DNA of 64,000 nucleotides, taken from assembly GCA_963663765.2 (NCBI GenBank), contig CAXXUA010000015.1:224001-288000 (forward strand), read 5' to 3'. Below are positions 11,844 to 20,731 of the stretch, in pieces. This stretch comes from Candidatus Poribacteria bacterium (GTDB taxonomy: Bacteria > Poribacteria > WGA-4E > WGA-3G). The first letter of the stretch is position 1; each line of letters opens with the position of its first letter. Below the pieces are notes generated by a model. That model made no database searches, was not told the origin of the DNA, and was given only the letters and a program-made list of their open reading frames with translations. The position numbers were made by a program, and so were the translations under genes.

Positions 11844-11885
11844 TAGATAATGTTAAGATTTGTATGGAAAGAACAAGGATTATTC

Positions 11886-13199
11886 ATGTATAAACTTCAT
11901 AATTATATCACAAGTCTGATAGTTATAATCTGTATCATAACTATCCTATCAACCGCATCAGCCCAATATCTGCTTGTTCCAATGGATCAGAAACAGACGA
12001 ACCATCTCAAGGCTTATGGACTAACATATTGGGCATTAGATGTGCCTCGCGAATACAAATGCTATTGGTGGTTGAACTACCGTGACGGTGCATTTGTCAT
12101 TCCTGACGGGGAGAATGTCCGCCTACGCGCAGCACAGATGGGTGTCACCGTTGAACAGATGAGTGCTGCAGATTATCAAACTATCAAAGAGACTACCATA
12201 GAAACCGGTAATATGGATGAGATTTTGCTGGAGAAAGCACCAAAGATTGCTGTTTATGCCCCTCCAGAGGATACACAATATCGTGATCCTTGGGATGATG
12301 CTGTCAAAATCGCACTGGAATATGCCGAGATACCTTATGACCAAATATGGGACAAAGAGGTACAACGCGGTGCATTACACACAGACGGATATGACTGGCT
12401 GCATCTACACCATGAAGATTTCACGGGACAACATGGAAAATTCCATGGGAGTTATTCCCACCAAGTCTGGTATCAACAACGCATGGCACTCTTTGAAACC
12501 GCAGCAAAGGAAGCAGGATTCAAGACTGTGGCTCAACATAAAGGACAAACTGTACAGGATATTGCAGATTATGTTGCAAAAGGTGGGTTTATCTTTGCTA
12601 TGTGTTCAGCACCCGAAACCTTGGATATATCCTTAGCAACAAAAGCCGGTAGAATTGATATAGTTGATCCTGTCTTGGATTCAACGCCACTTGATCCAAA
12701 CTATCAAAAAAAGTTGGATTTTACGCGAACATTTGCATTTGAAAACTTTATACTATACCCAAACCCAAATCGGTATGAATTCTCTGACGTTGACAATCCG
12801 AAGCCAGATCTAAGTCCACAATCCGGTGTTGAGAATTTCAAACTTTTTGAGTTCTCTGCAAAACATGATCCAATTCCTACGATGTTGACACAAAACCATG
12901 TAACCGAAGTTCGCGGATTCCTTGGACAAACAACTTCCTTCAATACTGATAAAGTTCACAAATCCGTCACGATTTTAGGAAAAATTGAAGGTACAAACTA
13001 TGTAAAATACATTCACGGTACATTAGGTAAGGGAACATTCACTTTCCTCGGTGGCCACGATCCAGAGGATTACAGACATCTCGTTGGGGAGGGTAAGATT
13101 CCAACGAACTTAGACCTACACAAACATTCACCCGGTTATCGGTTGATACTAAACAACATCTTATTCCCAGCAGCTCGCAAGAAACCGCAAAAAACATAA
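11886..13199 (+). CDS. Conserved secreted protein of the family often labelled 'asparagine synthetase B' (function unknown)
   Basis: Signal peptide; LVPMD..QTNHLKAYG, DWLHLHHEDFTGQ, FAMCSA, GGHDPEDY, SPGYRLILNNILFPAA. The canonical AsnB architecture is absent. Confidence 0.75.
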   Translation: MYKLHNYITSLIVIICIITILSTASAQYLLVPMDQKQTNHLKAYGLTYWALDVPREYKCYWWLNYRDGAFVIPDGENVRLRAAQMGVTVEQMSAADYQTIKETTIETGNMDEILLEKAPKIAVYAPPEDTQYRDPWDDAVKIALEYAEIPYDQIWDKEVQRGALHTDGYDWLHLHHEDFTGQHGKFHGSYSHQVWYQQRMALFETAAKEAGFKTVAQHKGQTVQDIADYVAKGGFIFAMCSAPETLDISLATKAGRIDIVDPVLDSTPLDPNYQKKLDFTRTFAFENFILYPNPNRYEFSDVDNPKPDLSPQSGVENFKLFEFSAKHDPIPTMLTQNHVTEVRGFLGQTTSFNTDKVHKSVTILGKIEGTNYVKYIHGTLGKGTFTFLGGHDPEDYRHLVGEGKIPTNLDLHKHSPGYRLILNNILFPAARKKPQKT

Positions 13200-13501: not shown

Positions 13502-15607
13502 ATGAAAGCAACACTTGCAACATGCAACCTAAATCAGTGGGCACTTGATTTTGACGGTAACTGTGATCGTATCATAGAATCTATAGAACTTGCAAAAGCA
13601 GCTGGTGCAAAGTATCGGCTTGGTCCAGAACTGGAAATAACCGGTTATTCCTGTGAAGACCACTTCCTTGAGGAAGATACATTACAACACAGTTGGGAAT
13701 CACTTGCACGTATAATCAACGGTGGATATACGGATGGTATTTTATGCGACATCGGAATGCCAGTGATGCACAAGAGTGTCCGATACAACTGCCGAGTCTT
13801 TGTCTGTGATGGCAAAATCCTGCTCATACGTCCCAAAAAGATACTCGCTGCGGAAGGGAATTACCGAGAACCAAGATGGTTTGCAGCATGGCAGAAAGGA
13901 TGGACGACAGAACCTTTCCAAGTACCACCTCAGATTTACGAAATTACAGCAAACAGAACAGTACCGATAGGGTGCGCGGTCATCGTGACACACGATACAA
14001 TTATAGCATCCGAAACATGTGAGGAATTGTTTGCTCCACATTCACCACACATAGACCTTGCATATAACGGGGTTGAAATAATTGCAAATGGCTCGGGTTC
14101 ACATCACGAACTCCGTAAACTTGATACGCGACTATCACTTATTTGTAACGCAACTGACAAATGTGGTGGTGTCTACCTATACGCAAATCAACAGGGATGT
14201 GATGGGGGAAGACTTTACTTTGACGGTTGTGCTTCCATTGCGCAAAACGGAGAAATACTGACACAAGGTTCACAGTTTTCTATCAATGATGTAGAAATCG
14301 TAACCGCAACAGTAGACCTTACAGATGTCCGTTCCTATCGCGGTTCAAGAATGAGCGGCGCTGTACAAGCAAGCCATGCGACTAATATACCACAAATCTA
14401 CGTTGACTTTGATATCAGGGATTCCAAAGAACGTCCTGTCACTATACCAAAAGCACATCTCAACATTCACACACCAGAGGAAGAGATTGCACTCGGTCCT
14501 GCTTGTTGGTTATGGGATTACCTCAGACGATCAGAAGCAGCAGGTTATTTCGTTCCGCTATCGGGAGGTTCAGATAGTGGTGCTGTCGCAACTTTAGTTG
14601 GTTCAATGTGCCAACTCGTTGCTAAAGGTATCCTTGATGATGTGCCACATGTCATCAGAGATGCAGAAAAGTTGTTGGGTACTGAATATATCCGAAACAT
14701 AAAAACGAATTTCAATGATCCATCATTAGCTGCACAGAACATCGCCAATCAACTGCTTTACACATGCTATATGGGAACTGCAAACAGTTCGCGGGAAACA
14801 CGACAGCGCGCCAAAGAATTGGCAAGTGAAATTGGGTGTTACCACTTAAATATCAATATGGAATCACTCGTCATAGCATTGCAGAAACTCTTTACTAACA
14901 TCACGGGTAAAACACCAAAGTTCAAAACTGAAGGTGGCAGCTCTATAGAAAATCAAGCACTTCAAAACATACAAGCGCGTCTGAGAATGGTTATCAGTTA
15001 CCTATTCGCACAAACATTACCGTGGGTTCGTAAGAGACGAGGTACGCTGCTTGTACTAGGCACAGGAAACGTTGACGAAGCCCTGCGCGGTTACCTCACC
15101 AAATATGATTGCAGCAGTGCAGACATCAATCCTATTGGTAGCATCAGTAAAACGGATCTTCGCAGCTTTCTCAATTGGGCAAAAGAGCATCTTGGTTACC
15201 CAAGTCTTGGAAATATCTTAGATGCACCACCCACAGCAGAATTAGAACCTATCACTGAAACATACACGCAAACCGATGAAGATGACATGGGAATGACTTA
15301 TGAAGAACTTAGCCAATTCGGGCAGTTGCGTAAAACACATCGATGTGGTCCTGTAAGTATGTTCAAGAAACTTGTGCAGGAGTGGGAACATATACCTCCA
15401 AGCGAAGTTGCTGATAAAGTCAAATGGTTTTTTCAACACTATGCAATCAATCGGCATAAAATGACAACATTAACGCCTTCATACCATGCTGAACCCTATT
15501 CACCAGACGACAACCGGTTTGACCTGCGCCAGTTCCTATATAATACGCGATGGACTTGGCAGTTTCGCAAAATTGACAGGTTGGTAGCGGAGATGAATAA
15601 CGAGTGA
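13502..15607 (+). CDS. nadE: Glutamine-dependent NAD(+) synthetase, eukaryote-like (QNS1/NADSYN1 type)
   Basis: Nitrilase-family glutaminase domain (GPELE, RPK, ETCEELF) fused to a synthetase domain ([48 protein letters not shown]). Confidence 0.95.
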
Positions 15608-17238
15608 ATGTAATGCTTTTATCACTATTCAGTAAAAATTCATTGACACTTCTTTTCCTGACAGTCATCTTTCTACTTTCATTCATGTGTTCCGTTTATG
15701 CAGTTCCGAATGTTCAACTCAACTTTGACGGTTGGGTGATGGAAGCACTCACAAGACTTGAAAATGTTGGCGTAATAGACGGCTTTCATAGGAATTCATT
15801 ACCACTATCACGTACCGATGTAGCAAGGATCGTCCAACGAACTGATGAGCGAATTAAAGCAGGTGATGTCGTTGTTTCACAGATAGACAGCCAACTCTTG
15901 AAGAAACTAAAACGCGAATTTCAGATTGAGATGCTCCAATTAAATGTTCAGATATCTAAACGGAAAACATACATTCGAATTCAACCTGAATTGCGTGGTG
16001 TGAATGAGGAAATTGCACCTGTACTTCAAAGTGGATTTCACTTTGCTCTCGGCAACAGAAGGAACAACTTGACGATATATTCCGAATTAGAATTATCTAA
16101 CTATGAACAGGGAACTGATTTCGTTGAGAGTTACTTTCTGCCTGATTCGCCACCACTACTAAAATCTGCAGACCAACGTTTTGAAAGATTGCGGGGAGAT
16201 TATATCGTAGACTTCAAGAGAAGTTATCTGCAATACCAATTGATGCCGTTCGGTGATGCAGAATTAGACATATTAGTGGGTAGAGATTTCGTCCATTGGG
16301 GAGCAAGTCCTAATAAATCTGTTGGAATTTCAGATAACTCACCATCCTTTGAACTTATACGTTTAGCAGGTACTTTTCCATGCAAAATTGGTACACTCAA
16401 ATTTACTGCGTTCTCTACCCAACTCAATTCAACGTGGTTTGACGATGGTGAAACCCGTTATCTTGCAAAACGCTATCTCAGCGCACATCGGTTAGACTAC
16501 CAATACAGCGATTGGCTTGAAATTGGTGTATCAGAATGGGTGCTTTACGGTGGAGATGTTCAATCTGTAGAATGGAACTATCTCAACCCTGTCATACCGT
16601 ATTATGCCGTTCAATACAATGCTAACAGAGATGATAACCTAATGCTCGGATTTGACGCTGCAATACGACCCTTGGACGGTGTCCGACTCTATGCAGAATG
16701 GGTCGCAGATGATTTTCAATATAACCCAAATACCGATGACCCCAATGCAGTTACTTGGCTTACAGGTCTTGAATGGTATCCGATACTGACAAAACGACAA
16801 CTTGGCATACATACGGAATATGTCCATGTCAATCGATGGGCATATACGCACCTTGATCCCGATAACCAATTCACACACTACGGAACGATGATTGGACATC
16901 CAATTAGCACGGATGCGGATTTATTTACTTTACGACTGTCTTATCAAGCTACGTCTTCAACACTGCTTGAAACACGTATAAGTCATCAACGTAATGGTGA
17001 AGCTGATATTACAGACCGCTTTTACGGTGAAGATTATGAGAACATTCCATTTCCTTCAGGAGTAGTCGAACGACTCACCGAATTTCGCATCGGATGTAAA
17101 TACAGACCTATTATTGGAATAAACGGTTCAGTTAATTATGGTTGGCGACATATTCAAAACAGCGAACATAAACAGAATATTTCAAAACAGCAACACCGTA
17201 TAGTTTTCCTGTTTGCTTATGCATGGGGTAATTCATAG
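15604..17238 (+). CDS. Capsule assembly Wzi-family outer-membrane protein
   Basis: Signal peptide; [35 protein letters not shown]; terminal aromatic residue. Overlaps the nadE stop. Confidence 0.75.
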
Positions 17239-17241
17239 TAG

Positions 17242-17943
17242 GTGACACTCATGTTGAAGATGACAAAACGCACTGTCGTGAAAATAATTATCTTCACGAT
17301 ATTCATAACTGGTTTCGTTGTTTTTATCCGTGACTGGACCGGGGTACGTCTTCTTATTGTCTCTCCAAAGATACTTAAATACCGTCCTATAATTCAAGAA
17401 CATGCTGTGAAACATCAGTTAGATTGGCGGCTTGTTACCGCACTAATCGTTCAAGAATCCGGCTTTAATGAACATGCTGTGAGTTCCGCTGGCGCAAAAG
17501 GATTGATGCAACTGATGCCTGAAACGGCAAAAGAACTGGGTGTCACTGACCCCTTTGTGTCAACTGAAAGCATCGCAGGAGCAACCCGTTATCTTCGCAG
17601 TTTATACGATCTCTATACCCAGAGTTCGCATCCAGATCGTATTCGCATCGCTTTAGCCAGTTATAATGGTGGACGCGGGCATATCAAAGATGCACAACAG
17701 GTTGCCTTACGTAAAAACCTTGTTCCCCATAAATGGAAGAGTATCAAAACCAGTTTGGGTTTACTCACAGTAAATGATAAAAAAATGCATGCTGAAATAT
17801 GGGAGTCAAGCACACCGCCACACGGCTACTTCAACGGATATCCTGAGACACGAAATTATGTTAAACGGGTGATGCAGTATTATGATAGGTTGTGCTTTTA
17901 TTCTGATATTGTAAGGGGTGTGAAATCAATTTTGAGTTCATAA
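17242..17943 (+). CDS. Lytic transglycosylase (SLT domain, MltF-like)
   Basis: ALIVQESGFN, GAKGLMQLMP, ALASYNGG, ETRNYV. Confidence 0.92.
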   Translation: MTLMLKMTKRTVVKIIIFTIFITGFVVFIRDWTGVRLLIVSPKILKYRPIIQEHAVKHQLDWRLVTALIVQESGFNEHAVSSAGAKGLMQLMPETAKELGVTDPFVSTESIAGATRYLRSLYDLYTQSSHPDRIRIALASYNGGRGHIKDAQQVALRKNLVPHKWKSIKTSLGLLTVNDKKMHAEIWESSTPPHGYFNGYPETRNYVKRVMQYYDRLCFYSDIVRGVKSILSS

Positions 17944-18165: not shown

Positions 18166-20625
18166 CTATTGACTACTACACAGTTCATTTAAGGGGACAA
18201 CACGATCAGTACCAGCAGGTAAATACGCCAAAATCATACCATCAACAGGCAGACTACGATCAGCAACAACTCCCGTACTTCGTTCTGCTGTCAACCCTTT
18301 GGAGAGAAGAAGATAAAAAGTATCTTTATACCAACCCGGTGTCGTGAAGAAATTACCTTGACCTTTTGAAATTACAATATCAGCTTCCAACAGAGCATTG
18401 AGGAATTCAGGTGTCGCATTATAGAGATTAGTACCAATCGTCTTCGCTCCTGACGACATGAGTGTGATTGCACCGTCCTGAATAGCACTTTGAATCTCCT
18501 CAAATTGCGGGTAATTTGTAATCTCATGTAATTCTGCTAACGTCACATCATTGCTTGCGTTGTCTACCTTTCCAACTATACATAGACGATGTCCACAACC
18601 AACGAGTTCCTGTATGAAAGCCATATCAAAGATTATTTCTCCATCGTTGTCCGCAAGCCACAAAATCTTTTGAGAGTGAGCATCTAATACTTTTTCCTGA
18701 AATTGATCATAACAATCAATAGCAAAGGGGGTTATTACCGCAGCGCGAAGTGCTTGAGAAAAATAGTCAGGATCAGCATTTATTTTTTGGACGACGCGCG
18801 CACTACTATAGTCAATCACGTTACCAGCAACAACAAGCTTTAACCTTGTTAACCAATCGTTATCCCAAAACTCTGGTATCAAATCAAGGGCTGTTTTCCG
18901 AGCTTTGAGTTTATCGTCATGATAGGGATTCAGGTTACCAGTATACAGATCCACCATCTCAAAGATCGTTCCCCATAGTTCCTCAGGGGTAAGTGACTCA
19001 ATCAGATAATTACCATTTGAAAGCTGCATATCCAAGAGTGTATCTACCGCATTGCTCACAGTTTCCTGCACTTTGGAGTTGCGCGTTGCACGAGGAATCA
19101 ACTCAGTTGCACTATGGGAACGAACATGCTTTCGAAGGTTCTCCCAATCCGGTAAATCCTTCTTTTCACCAAAAGTGAAAACACCCGGTCTATAATTCGC
19201 TGGTACAATTTGCTTGAAAAGGGAACTTGGAACTCCGATAGGAGATTCCGCAGGAGGTACACCTAACCTGTGATTCTTCAACCTTACACCAGATGGGATG
19301 ACTGTTGCATGTGCTTGAATGTCTGTAAGGTTGACTTTACTTCCAACGGTAACACCATCAAAAATGCAGTTATTGATAGTACTTACAGTGGCAATACCAC
19401 GAACAGGTTCTGAAATCACTGAGGGTAAGGTGTTCATCTCAAATGTCGTATCGGTAGCAGTGACATTCTGCAAACCAATGGAATCACCAACGTTTGTTGT
19501 ACCCTTTAGTGTAACATTTTCCAATCTACAGTAATCACCGATGGCAACATCTTTCCCGATATGAATTCTACCGAGGAGATAACATGCAGTTCCAATTTCA
19601 ACGACTTCGCTACCTAAAGTAATCTGAGCAGCAGGATCGACTCGTATGCCTTTTCCAGCAAGGAATTCGCGTGTCTTAGCAAACATCGCAGCTTCACCTG
19701 ACAGCACATTTGACCAGCGATTTACGCCTGACAAGACTTCACCACGATAGATAAATGCATTCGTCTTTAGTCCATCTTCATAGCATAAGCGAATAAGATC
19801 GACGTGATGCAGTTCGTTCTTTCGGTTTGCATGCGGCTGCAAACGATGGATACGTTCCAGTAACGCACTCTTTCGTATGATTGTGATGCCAGTGTTGGTA
19901 TATGCTTCGCTCCGTTCTAATCGCTGCCACATCTCTACTTTTTCTAACTCTGACATGTCATACCATTCTTTTGTACCAATGAACTTGTTGTCAGTATCAA
20001 AAAAGAGACCGCCTTTATCAATCACTGTGTCAGGTATTTTGCCACATAGTGTGACATCAGAATCGGTGAGGATATGAGATAACAGAGTTTGGACGAATAT
20101 GGTCCGGTCTAAGAAAGGTTCGTCACCGAATGCCACGCCAACCCACTCTGCATCTGAGTCTTGTATCTCCGGTAGTGCTGCTTGCAACGCACCACCTGTG
20201 CCGTTCATCTCTTCTTGGATGCAGGGGACGGCATTTTCACCTAACATGCAATTACGTATATCACTTTCTGCTATCCTTGCTGCCATTTGTGGATTGATAA
20301 CTATTATACGTGGACGATTTCCGGGCAAAAATCGACATGACTGCTGCAGCATGTTCTGCTCTCCAAACACAATATCTAATGTCTTACTCATCTGTCCTGT
20401 GGGATCAATTCGTGTTCCTTTCCCTGCTGCAAGCACAACCCATTGCGGTGAAAGGTAACTTTCAAGGACATCTACTGGAAGTGAGTTAAGGTGGGAGATT
20501 AAGTTGTCTTGGGTAACATCATCGGTATCAGTTACATCTTGAATTTTGCAACCGAGTATGTTTTCAATTAACTCTGTCTTATCTTCCGTTAATTGTGCTT
20601 TGGAGTTGAGCATATCATTACTCAT
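18166..20625 (-). CDS. Fusion protein: GlmU-like nucleotidyltransferase + short left-handed beta-helix + ARMT1/DUF89 phosphatase
   Basis: VVLAAGKGTR, IQEEMNGTGGA, GDEPFL, GVN; hexapeptide-like region; C-terminal AGNVIDY, LADNDGE, NDVT, ISKGQGNF. Start placed at MSND (SD GGAG). Confidence 0.8.
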   Translation of the reverse strand: MSNDMLNSKAQLTEDKTELIENILGCKIQDVTDTDDVTQDNLISHLNSLPVDVLESYLSPQWVVLAAGKGTRIDPTGQMSKTLDIVFGEQNMLQQSCRFLPGNRPRIIVINPQMAARIAESDIRNCMLGENAVPCIQEEMNGTGGALQAALPEIQDSDAEWVGVAFGDEPFLDRTIFVQTLLSHILTDSDVTLCGKIPDTVIDKGGLFFDTDNKFIGTKEWYDMSELEKVEMWQRLERSEAYTNTGITIIRKSALLERIHRLQPHANRKNELHHVDLIRLCYEDGLKTNAFIYRGEVLSGVNRWSNVLSGEAAMFAKTREFLAGKGIRVDPAAQITLGSEVVEIGTACYLLGRIHIGKDVAIGDYCRLENVTLKGTTNVGDSIGLQNVTATDTTFEMNTLPSVISEPVRGIATVSTINNCIFDGVTVGSKVNLTDIQAHATVIPSGVRLKNHRLGVPPAESPIGVPSSLFKQIVPANYRPGVFTFGEKKDLPDWENLRKHVRSHSATELIPRATRNSKVQETVSNAVDTLLDMQLSNGNYLIESLTPEELWGTIFEMVDLYTGNLNPYHDDKLKARKTALDLIPEFWDNDWLTRLKLVVAGNVIDYSSARVVQKINADPDYFSQALRAAVITPFAIDCYDQFQEKVLDAHSQKILWLADNDGEIIFDMAFIQELVGCGHRLCIVGKVDNASNDVTLAELHEITNYPQFEEIQSAIQDGAITLMSSGAKTIGTNLYNATPEFLNALLEADIVISKGQGNFFTTPGWYKDTFYLLLSKGLTAERSTGVVADRSLPVDGMILAYLPAGTDRVVPLNELCSSQ

Positions 20626-20731
20626 TAAAATGCATTCTCCAGTTTTATAAGTAATAAGGCGTGCATCCAAGTAAATGGTCATAAGGACACACGCCTTGTT
20701 TCTTGTATATGACAATCCGACAGATTAGTCT

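Follow-up and report, generated by a model that had tools for sequence, protein, structure and literature searches.

The window analyzed here is a stretch of 64,000 nucleotides (C15:224001-288000; contig CAXXUA010000015.1) from a Candidatus Poribacteria genome (G000; assembly GCA_963663765.2) that comprises 6.35 Mb in 15 contigs and is estimated to be 97.8% complete. The gene in question is an open reading frame (ORF) on the forward strand, predicted to encode a fused, glutamine-dependent nicotinamide adenine dinucleotide (NAD+) synthetase of the type represented by human NADSYN1 and yeast Qns1. The ORF starts with ATG and contains no internal stops and no introns. The gene and the parts of its product, in window coordinates, are as follows:

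13502-15607, + strand: eukaryote-type (NADSYN1/Qns1-type) two-domain glutamine-dependent NAD+ synthetase gene, 701 amino acids (P0001)
13514-14341, + strand: N-terminal nitrilase-type glutaminase domain, amino acids 5-280 (Pfam PF00795 CN_hydrolase, 120.7 bits)
14507-15328, + strand: PP-loop NAD synthetase domain, amino acids 336-609 (PF02540 NAD_synthase, 100.9 bits; TIGR00552, 99.7 bits)
15329-15604, + strand: C-terminal extension, amino acids 610-701, common to eukaryotic NADSYN1 and gap-free against human 6ofb (~606-695)

The Pfam matches place the nitrilase-type glutaminase domain of P0001 ahead of the PP-loop synthetase domain in a single fused chain, and the C-terminal extension includes the stretch [15 protein letters not shown]...[11 protein letters not shown], also found in eukaryotic NADSYN1. 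When all chains of the Protein Data Bank (PDB) were searched, the best match to P0001 was human NADSYN1 (6ofb_A, 874.7 bits, E 4.9e-262), with residues 2-698 colinear with residues 5-695 of the 6ofb chain. Bacterial enzymes scored far lower in the same search, at 208.8 bits for Cytophaga hutchinsonii (3ilv), 72.5 bits for Mycobacterium tuberculosis (3dla) and about 35 bits for dimeric bacterial NadE chains (Burkholderia 4f4h, 36.6 bits). The identity of P0001 to characterized eukaryotic enzymes is about 60%, against ~29% to the nearest ordinary bacterial NadE, and a protein atlas search again returned eukaryotic likeness only. By curated cut-offs P0001 falls outside the classical two-domain NadE families PRK02628 (156.9 bits, cut-off 473) and PRK13981 (129.6 bits, cut-off 479); the NCBIfam equivalog models for bacterial NadE score the eukaryote-type enzyme far under their cut-offs. 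Because the score to 6ofb lies far above those of the bacterial PDB chains and the NCBIfam scores lie under their cut-offs, comparison of the protein sequences confirms the product as a NADSYN1/Qns1-type enzyme, unlike typical bacterial NadE. An initial annotation of the window, made from its letters, had claimed a close resemblance to human NADSYN1 and a difference from typical bacterial NadE. The full-length 6ofb match and the low equivalog scores agree with both claims, and all six of the motifs it quoted are present in the ORF translation.

Conservation of functional residues was counted over 26 bacterial sequences of the eukaryote type, 30 eukaryotic sequences and 5 outgroup NadE. Chuenchor et al. 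(2020, PMC6946656) give the triad of human NADSYN1 as Cys175-Glu45-Lys114, with Glu125 as a second glutamate, and describe Tyr123 and His203 at the tunnel constriction as conserved in eukaryotes. The corresponding triad of P0001 (C173, E43 and K112) and its second glutamate (E123) are invariant in all 26 bacterial copies. The YRE loop reads EGNYRE (residues 118-123), in which Y121 corresponds to human Tyr123; tyrosine occupies this position in all 26 bacterial copies and 29 of the 30 eukaryotes and in none of the 5 outgroup NadE, which have histidine (4) or phenylalanine (1). H201, the equivalent of human His203, is likewise present in 26/26 bacterial copies, and because four of the five outgroups also have it, this position is not discriminating. 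The PP-loop motif SGGxDS appears in P0001 as SGGSDS (354-359), with S354, G355, G356, D358 and S359 in every bacterial copy. With ~60% identity to characterized eukaryotic enzymes, P0001 is predicted to work as a glutamine-dependent NAD+ synthetase by the same mechanism. Glutamine would be hydrolyzed by the nitrilase-type domain (Cys173-Glu43-Lys112) and the ammonia would move via an internal tunnel into the PP-loop domain, which would adenylate nicotinic acid adenine dinucleotide (NaAD) and then amidate it to NAD+. Substrate would presumably be supplied by the ordinary bacterial NadA and NadD of the same genome; G000 carries both (NadD, 178.9 bits, above cut-off; NadA, 278.3 bits).

The initial annotation had proposed looking for a second nadE in the genome and for the spread of the gene across Poribacteria. 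A PF02540 scan of G000 found three further matches, a 289-amino-acid PP-loop ATPase, GMP synthase and MnmA; since these belong to other enzymes, P0001 is the sole NAD synthetase found in this genome. Named database relatives at 68-84% identity are recorded as Candidatus Poribacteria bacterium, and strong homologues were present in 41/41 sampled relatives (63-91% identity, E 0 to 1e-182). In a scan of the phylum, 158 of the 159 genomes of the window's order (G000 included) had a strong homologue, closed chromosomes among them. Counted by the four families of the order, here f1 to f4, the members with a strong homologue were:

f1: 111/111
f2: 11/11
f3: 28/29
f4: 7/7

In the single miss (G070; 95% complete, 260 contigs) no NAD synthetase of any type was found, so an assembly gap is likely there. 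Among the 17 Poribacteria outside the order, 16 matched only weakly (E 1e-6 to 1e-10) and one had no match (G047, 73% complete). Of nine such genomes scanned with PF02540, eight have classical NadE (186-269 bits), as single-domain ORFs of ~270-330 amino acids and/or two-domain ORFs of 544-589 amino acids. Given the order-wide presence of the eukaryote type and the classical NadE of other orders, it appears that classical NadE was replaced at the base of one order. As a separate observation, the NADSYN homologue is split into two to three matches in nine genomes of one family (G089, G091, G119, G126, G129, G130, G134, G161 and G174), with best E values of ~1e-182 to 1e-191; in G161, for example, the match covers residues 321-699 within a 734-amino-acid open frame. 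A frameshift, or an insertion into the linker between the two domains, may lie behind these splits.

The eukaryote type is not confined to Poribacteria, the group in which the initial annotation had framed it, but occurs also in Chloroflexota and one member of the Trueperaceae. Proteins titled Chloroflexota first surfaced in a search with a metagenomic relative, P0123. A scan of GTDB with one genome per species and P0377 as query gave 171 relatives; for the best 80 of these the composition is known, and by record title they divide into 50 Poribacteria, 28 Chloroflexota, 1 Trueperaceae and 1 'uncultured bacterium', the last with a protein identical to one from an f3 Poribacteria genome. Record titles for the Chloroflexota among these best 80 name, among others, Ardenticatenaceae, Promineifilaceae, Ca. 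Leptovillus affinis, Caldilineaceae and Anaerolineae, and in one case Chloroflexia. Mis-binning does not explain the holders outside Poribacteria, since three of their records are single chromosomes (4.2-6.8 Mb). In five non-Poribacteria holder genomes the eukaryote type was the only strong PF02540 match. The gene is patchy in both phyla at a match threshold of E <= 1e-100. An even sample of the Chloroflexota yielded 1/401, the genome used to define the sample (G176) itself, and the sampled orders gave:

order of G176 (Chloroflexota): 1/56
order of G179 (Chloroflexota): 33/167
order of G177 (Chloroflexota): 2/151
order of the Trueperaceae genome (Deinococcota): 1/151

In the order of G179, PRK02628 was above its NCBIfam cut-off in 0/61 genomes. 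On the Trueperaceae chromosome, a 190-amino-acid cytidylyltransferase-like (NadD-like) gene lies directly downstream of NADSYN (L085:6237-6806, + strand), which makes NADSYN part of a NAD-biosynthesis pair in this genome. No transposase or integrase was found among 10 neighboring proteins scanned at Trueperaceae, Chloroflexota and f4 Poribacteria loci.

Phylogenetic trees were calculated with 30 eukaryote rows (8 fungi, 4 animals, 6 Archaeplastida, 7 from the stramenopile-alveolate-Rhizaria group (SAR) and 5 transcriptome proteins). The outgroups were the nearest obtainable ordinary NadE (~29% identity), taken by tblastn from plasmid or chromid records of Vibrio, Hymenobacter, Spirosoma and Phocaeicola. 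A tree of 61 rows and 697 columns was obtained by a quick search in IQ-TREE under LG+C20+F+G4 with posterior mean site frequencies (PMSF). A second tree of 39 rows was searched carefully; it added three unnamed representatives and left out Phocaeicola (because of its branch length of 10), V. vulnificus, L049, 3 Poribacteria, 6 Chloroflexota and 12/30 eukaryote rows, including the longest branches. Support is given as the Shimodaira-Hasegawa-like approximate likelihood ratio (SH-aLRT) for 61 rows and as ultrafast bootstrap (UFBoot)/SH-aLRT for 39 rows. Sequences of the eukaryote type were split from the ordinary NadE of Vibrio, Hymenobacter and Spirosoma in both trees (100; 100/100), and all bacterial copies formed one clade (93 for 26 copies; 94/86) on a very short stem of 0.04-0.06 substitutions per site. 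This clade adjoined Archaeplastida+SAR in the 61-row free tree (85) and Opisthokonta in the 39-row free tree (86/90), where the remaining eukaryotic backbone was a polytomy. The bacterial copies thus lie within the eukaryote-type branch as a single clade whose point of attachment coincides with the deepest eukaryotic splits or lies close to them. The initial annotation had named, as the outcome that would contradict it, nesting of the protein in a wide bacterial clade far from the eukaryotes; the trees did not recover such a position. Within the bacterial clade of the 61-row tree, a subclade of Chloroflexota and Trueperaceae (99) was nested among Poribacteria, with f4 branching first (95). Constraining Poribacteria to one clade gave a tree 10.5 log-likelihood units (lnL) worse, with p = 0.08 in the approximately unbiased (AU) test. 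Gene transfer may have run from Poribacteria to Chloroflexota.

Of 30 representatives from the 50% clustering, 8 received names by exact look-up. Unnamed metagenomic sequences were placed by FastTree with diatoms, Rhizaria, red algae or green algae, and no further bacterial group appeared among them in these runs. Five metagenome loci with wrong ORFs (branch 6.33) were left out. A metagenome scan with P0271 recovered long contigs that group with green algae or stramenopiles and yielded no new bacterial holder. P0263 had been considered as an ordinary-NadE outgroup and was rejected, as a homologue search shows it to be a divergent offshoot of the eukaryote type; P0463 and P0464 were rejected for the same use, both being of the eukaryote type and placed among diatoms. 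For five metagenomic eukaryote-type proteins of 646-678 amino acids (P0263, P0401-P0403 and P0418), the precomputed Pfam list shows the synthetase domain only, and their N-terminal glutaminase domain may have degenerated.

The genes that surround NADSYN in the window are:

11850-13199, + strand: conserved upstream neighbor of 449 amino acids, with a hydrophobic N-terminus and 0 Pfam/NCBIfam matches
15604-17238, + strand: Wzi-like outer-membrane capsule-assembly gene (Pfam PF14052 Caps_assemb_Wzi, 75.8 bits)
17242-17943, + strand: SLT-domain lytic transglycosylase gene (Pfam PF01464, 84.8 bits), syntenic in many f1 loci

The order 449-amino-acid gene, NADSYN, Wzi-like gene, SLT gene is kept in f1 and f2 loci with neighbor identities of 40-95%: a homologue of the 449-amino-acid gene always lies directly upstream of NADSYN there (69-95% identity), and the Wzi-like gene is syntenic across both families (40-82%). 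This order was not found in f3, f4 or other phyla, with the exception that one f3-type locus (L075) retains the Wzi-like gene. The overlap with a Wzi-like gene that the initial annotation had reported agrees with the Pfam match, and the Wzi-like ORF overlaps the NADSYN stop codon by 4 nucleotides provided that its GTG is the true start. The GC content (0.438) and the GC at third codon positions (0.363) of the NADSYN gene are in line with those of its neighbors, in which third-position GC is 0.32-0.38. Downstream of the SLT gene, on the opposite strand (18166-20715), lies an 849-amino-acid ORF that by eye resembles a nucleotidyltransferase-like N-terminal part fused to a further C-terminal domain.

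How a eukaryote-type enzyme came to reside in these bacteria can be explained in several ways. A eukaryotic contig or gene misassembled into bacterial genomes would account for the eukaryote-like sequence itself and for nothing else. The gene is interior to its stretch of contig C15 and flanked by bacterial genes, the same synteny is repeated across dozens of independent assemblies, some of them single-contig chromosomes (4-7 Mb), and the eukaryote type is the sole NAD synthetase of these genomes. Synteny and closed chromosomes refute contamination or mis-binning, to which we attach a negligible probability, and the initial annotation was right to regard it as unlikely for what is a chromosomal gene, syntenic over many genomes. 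Poribacteria are known as sponge symbionts, and on that ground the gene could be imagined to have come recently from the host, a sponge or another animal; in addition, the best representative in a 50% clustering (P0122, 58% identity) groups with an insect sequence. However, Lygus and P0122 form a separate group within Opisthokonta (99/99), the bacterial clade never joined the sampled animals (no named sponge among them), and its identity to animal sequences (53-58%) is not above that to fungi or Rhizaria (59-65%). The gene is also present in all four families of the order (63-91% identity) and in Chloroflexota labelled Ca. Leptovillus, Promineifilaceae and Ardenticatenaceae. A host origin of this kind is therefore very improbable, and the tie to a sponge symbiosis made in the initial annotation was not upheld, as no link to a sponge host was found.

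We favor, with a probability of about 0.6, one old transfer from a eukaryote to a bacterium that displaced the native nadE and was followed by spread between bacteria. The donor would have been a eukaryote from the first branchings of the eukaryotic radiation or close to them, and would have handed over NADSYN once. In the ancestor of the window's Poribacteria order the acquired gene would have displaced the classical NadE that other orders of the phylum keep, with vertical inheritance in the order thereafter. Later moves between phyla would have brought the bacterial version to part of the Chloroflexota and to a single lineage of Trueperaceae, as the sole NAD synthetase there too. Every known bacterial holder group looks like a recipient, because the other orders around the window's order have classical NadE, and in Chloroflexota and Deinococcota only a small minority of genomes hold the eukaryote type. 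Together with the single shallow bacterial clade, and with the fused form being characteristic of all eukaryotes according to De Ingeniis et al. (2012, PMC3376133), this recipient-like pattern makes one old transfer the more economical explanation. A number of points weigh against it. The placement of the bacterial clade shifts with taxon sampling, and the named eukaryotes sampled exclude sponges, vertebrates, Amoebozoa and Excavates. The outgroup branch, at 6.6-9.2 substitutions per site, joins the longest eukaryotic branches (trematode, myxozoan and ciliate), a pattern expected from long-branch attraction that makes the root unreliable. Constraining eukaryotes to be monophyletic gave a tree 20.6 lnL better than the quick free tree with 61 rows (p-AU 0.82) and 4.4 lnL worse with 39 rows (p-AU 0.10). 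In a search for indels none joined the bacteria to any eukaryotic subgroup, the sole indel between bacteria and eukaryotes being one linker column. Several long-branched, taxonomically unassigned metagenomic sequences (P0271, P0193, P0264, P0159 and P0263) lie at the base, and the remaining 91/171 GTDB relatives may include further bacterial or archaeal holders. A position of the bacteria as sister to all eukaryotes also fits the AU tests, and transfer may have run in either direction. The competing explanation, which we consider possible though unlikely, is that these bacteria hold a gene with no eukaryotic past: their clade would be an ancient sister of the eukaryotic enzyme, or the progeny of a bacterial donor from which the eukaryotic stem acquired NADSYN. 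Eukaryote monophyly passes the AU tests and with 61 rows yields the better tree, the stem of the bacterial clade is very short, and the clade attaches where Opisthokonta and Archaeplastida+SAR part, a split that lies near one commonly proposed root of eukaryotes. The gene also has neither introns nor compositional oddity. De Ingeniis et al. (PMC3376133) argue that the eukaryotic branch is bacterial in origin, which a sister or donor lineage would fit. However, no bacterial phylum shows ancestral carriage: the Poribacteria holders are one order, with classical NadE in the others, and the distribution in Chloroflexota and Deinococcota is patchy. Furthermore, the bacteria form one shallow clade and no grade around eukaryotes, and the long stem from ordinary NadE to the eukaryote type is unbroken by any bacterial sequence of known origin. 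The more specific proposal that the Poribacteria/Chloroflexota/Trueperaceae clade is a surviving sister or donor-side relative, and that eukaryotes obtained NADSYN from such a bacterium shortly before the last eukaryotic common ancestor (LECA), is more doubtful still. Of the two alternatives left by the initial annotation, eukaryote-to-bacterium transfer and a bacterial sister clade, both stand, and the AU values of 0.10 and 0.82 choose neither.

A full-text literature search, which did not cover the supplementary trees of PMC3376133, found no paper on a eukaryote-type NAD synthetase in Poribacteria or Chloroflexota. Neither the enzyme family nor the phenomenon, a housekeeping gene displaced by transfer between domains, is new. 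NAD synthetase is essential and encoded by a single-copy housekeeping gene, and interdomain crossing of such genes is thought to be rare; here a eukaryote-like version (~60% identity) serves a whole bacterial order, and scattered lineages of two further phyla, as their sole NAD synthetase. An old transfer from a eukaryote, if true, would be a clean example of a bacterial gene replaced by its eukaryotic counterpart, which then spread among bacteria. If the clade were instead a sister or donor lineage, it would hold the bacterial enzyme most closely related to one that is universal in eukaryotes and bear on the origin of eukaryotic NAD metabolism, and with a donor before LECA these bacteria would mark the source of that universal enzyme. 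In practical terms, the bacterial orthologues could serve as soluble, intron-free proteins for the study of the human-type ammonia tunnel.

Among known systems, P0001 most resembles the eukaryotic octamers human NADSYN1 (6ofb) and yeast Qns1, the class assigned to branch II by De Ingeniis et al. (2012, PMC3376133). It is like them in length, domain order and C-terminal extension, and it has the same Cys-Glu-Lys triad, second glutamate, YRE-loop tyrosine and PP-loop motif. It differs in that its type is encoded on bacterial chromosomes beside bacterial envelope genes and in that the bacterial copies form a clade of their own. An octameric assembly may be expected for P0001 as well. The M. tuberculosis NadE (3dla; PRK02628) and dimeric NadE2-Gln (PRK13981; Burkholderia 4f4h) share the reaction and the domain logic with P0001 but are remote from it, at 72.5 and 36.6 bits in the PDB search and 157 and 130 bits with the NCBIfam models. 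Eukaryote-derived glutaminyl-tRNA synthetase in bacteria is an interdomain replacement of a housekeeping enzyme. The two cases are alike in that a core single-copy enzyme of eukaryotic type is the only version in bacterial lineages; the enzyme is a different one, however, and the range of NADSYN is narrow, comprising one order and scattered lineages. The closest ordinary bacterial relatives found, the NadE of Cytophaga (3ilv), Spirosoma, Hymenobacter and Vibrio, have the same fused glutaminase-synthetase layout. They differ from P0001 in their ~29% identity, in scores of 209-233 bits, in the long branch that separates them in the trees (6.6-9.2 substitutions per site), and, as outgroups, in having His or Phe where the P0001 type has Tyr (human Tyr123). 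In Vibrio parahaemolyticus and V. vulnificus (L125 and L129), pncB immediately precedes this Cytophaga-like nadE, and the replicons concerned, of ~0.9 Mb, carry a plasmid annotation.

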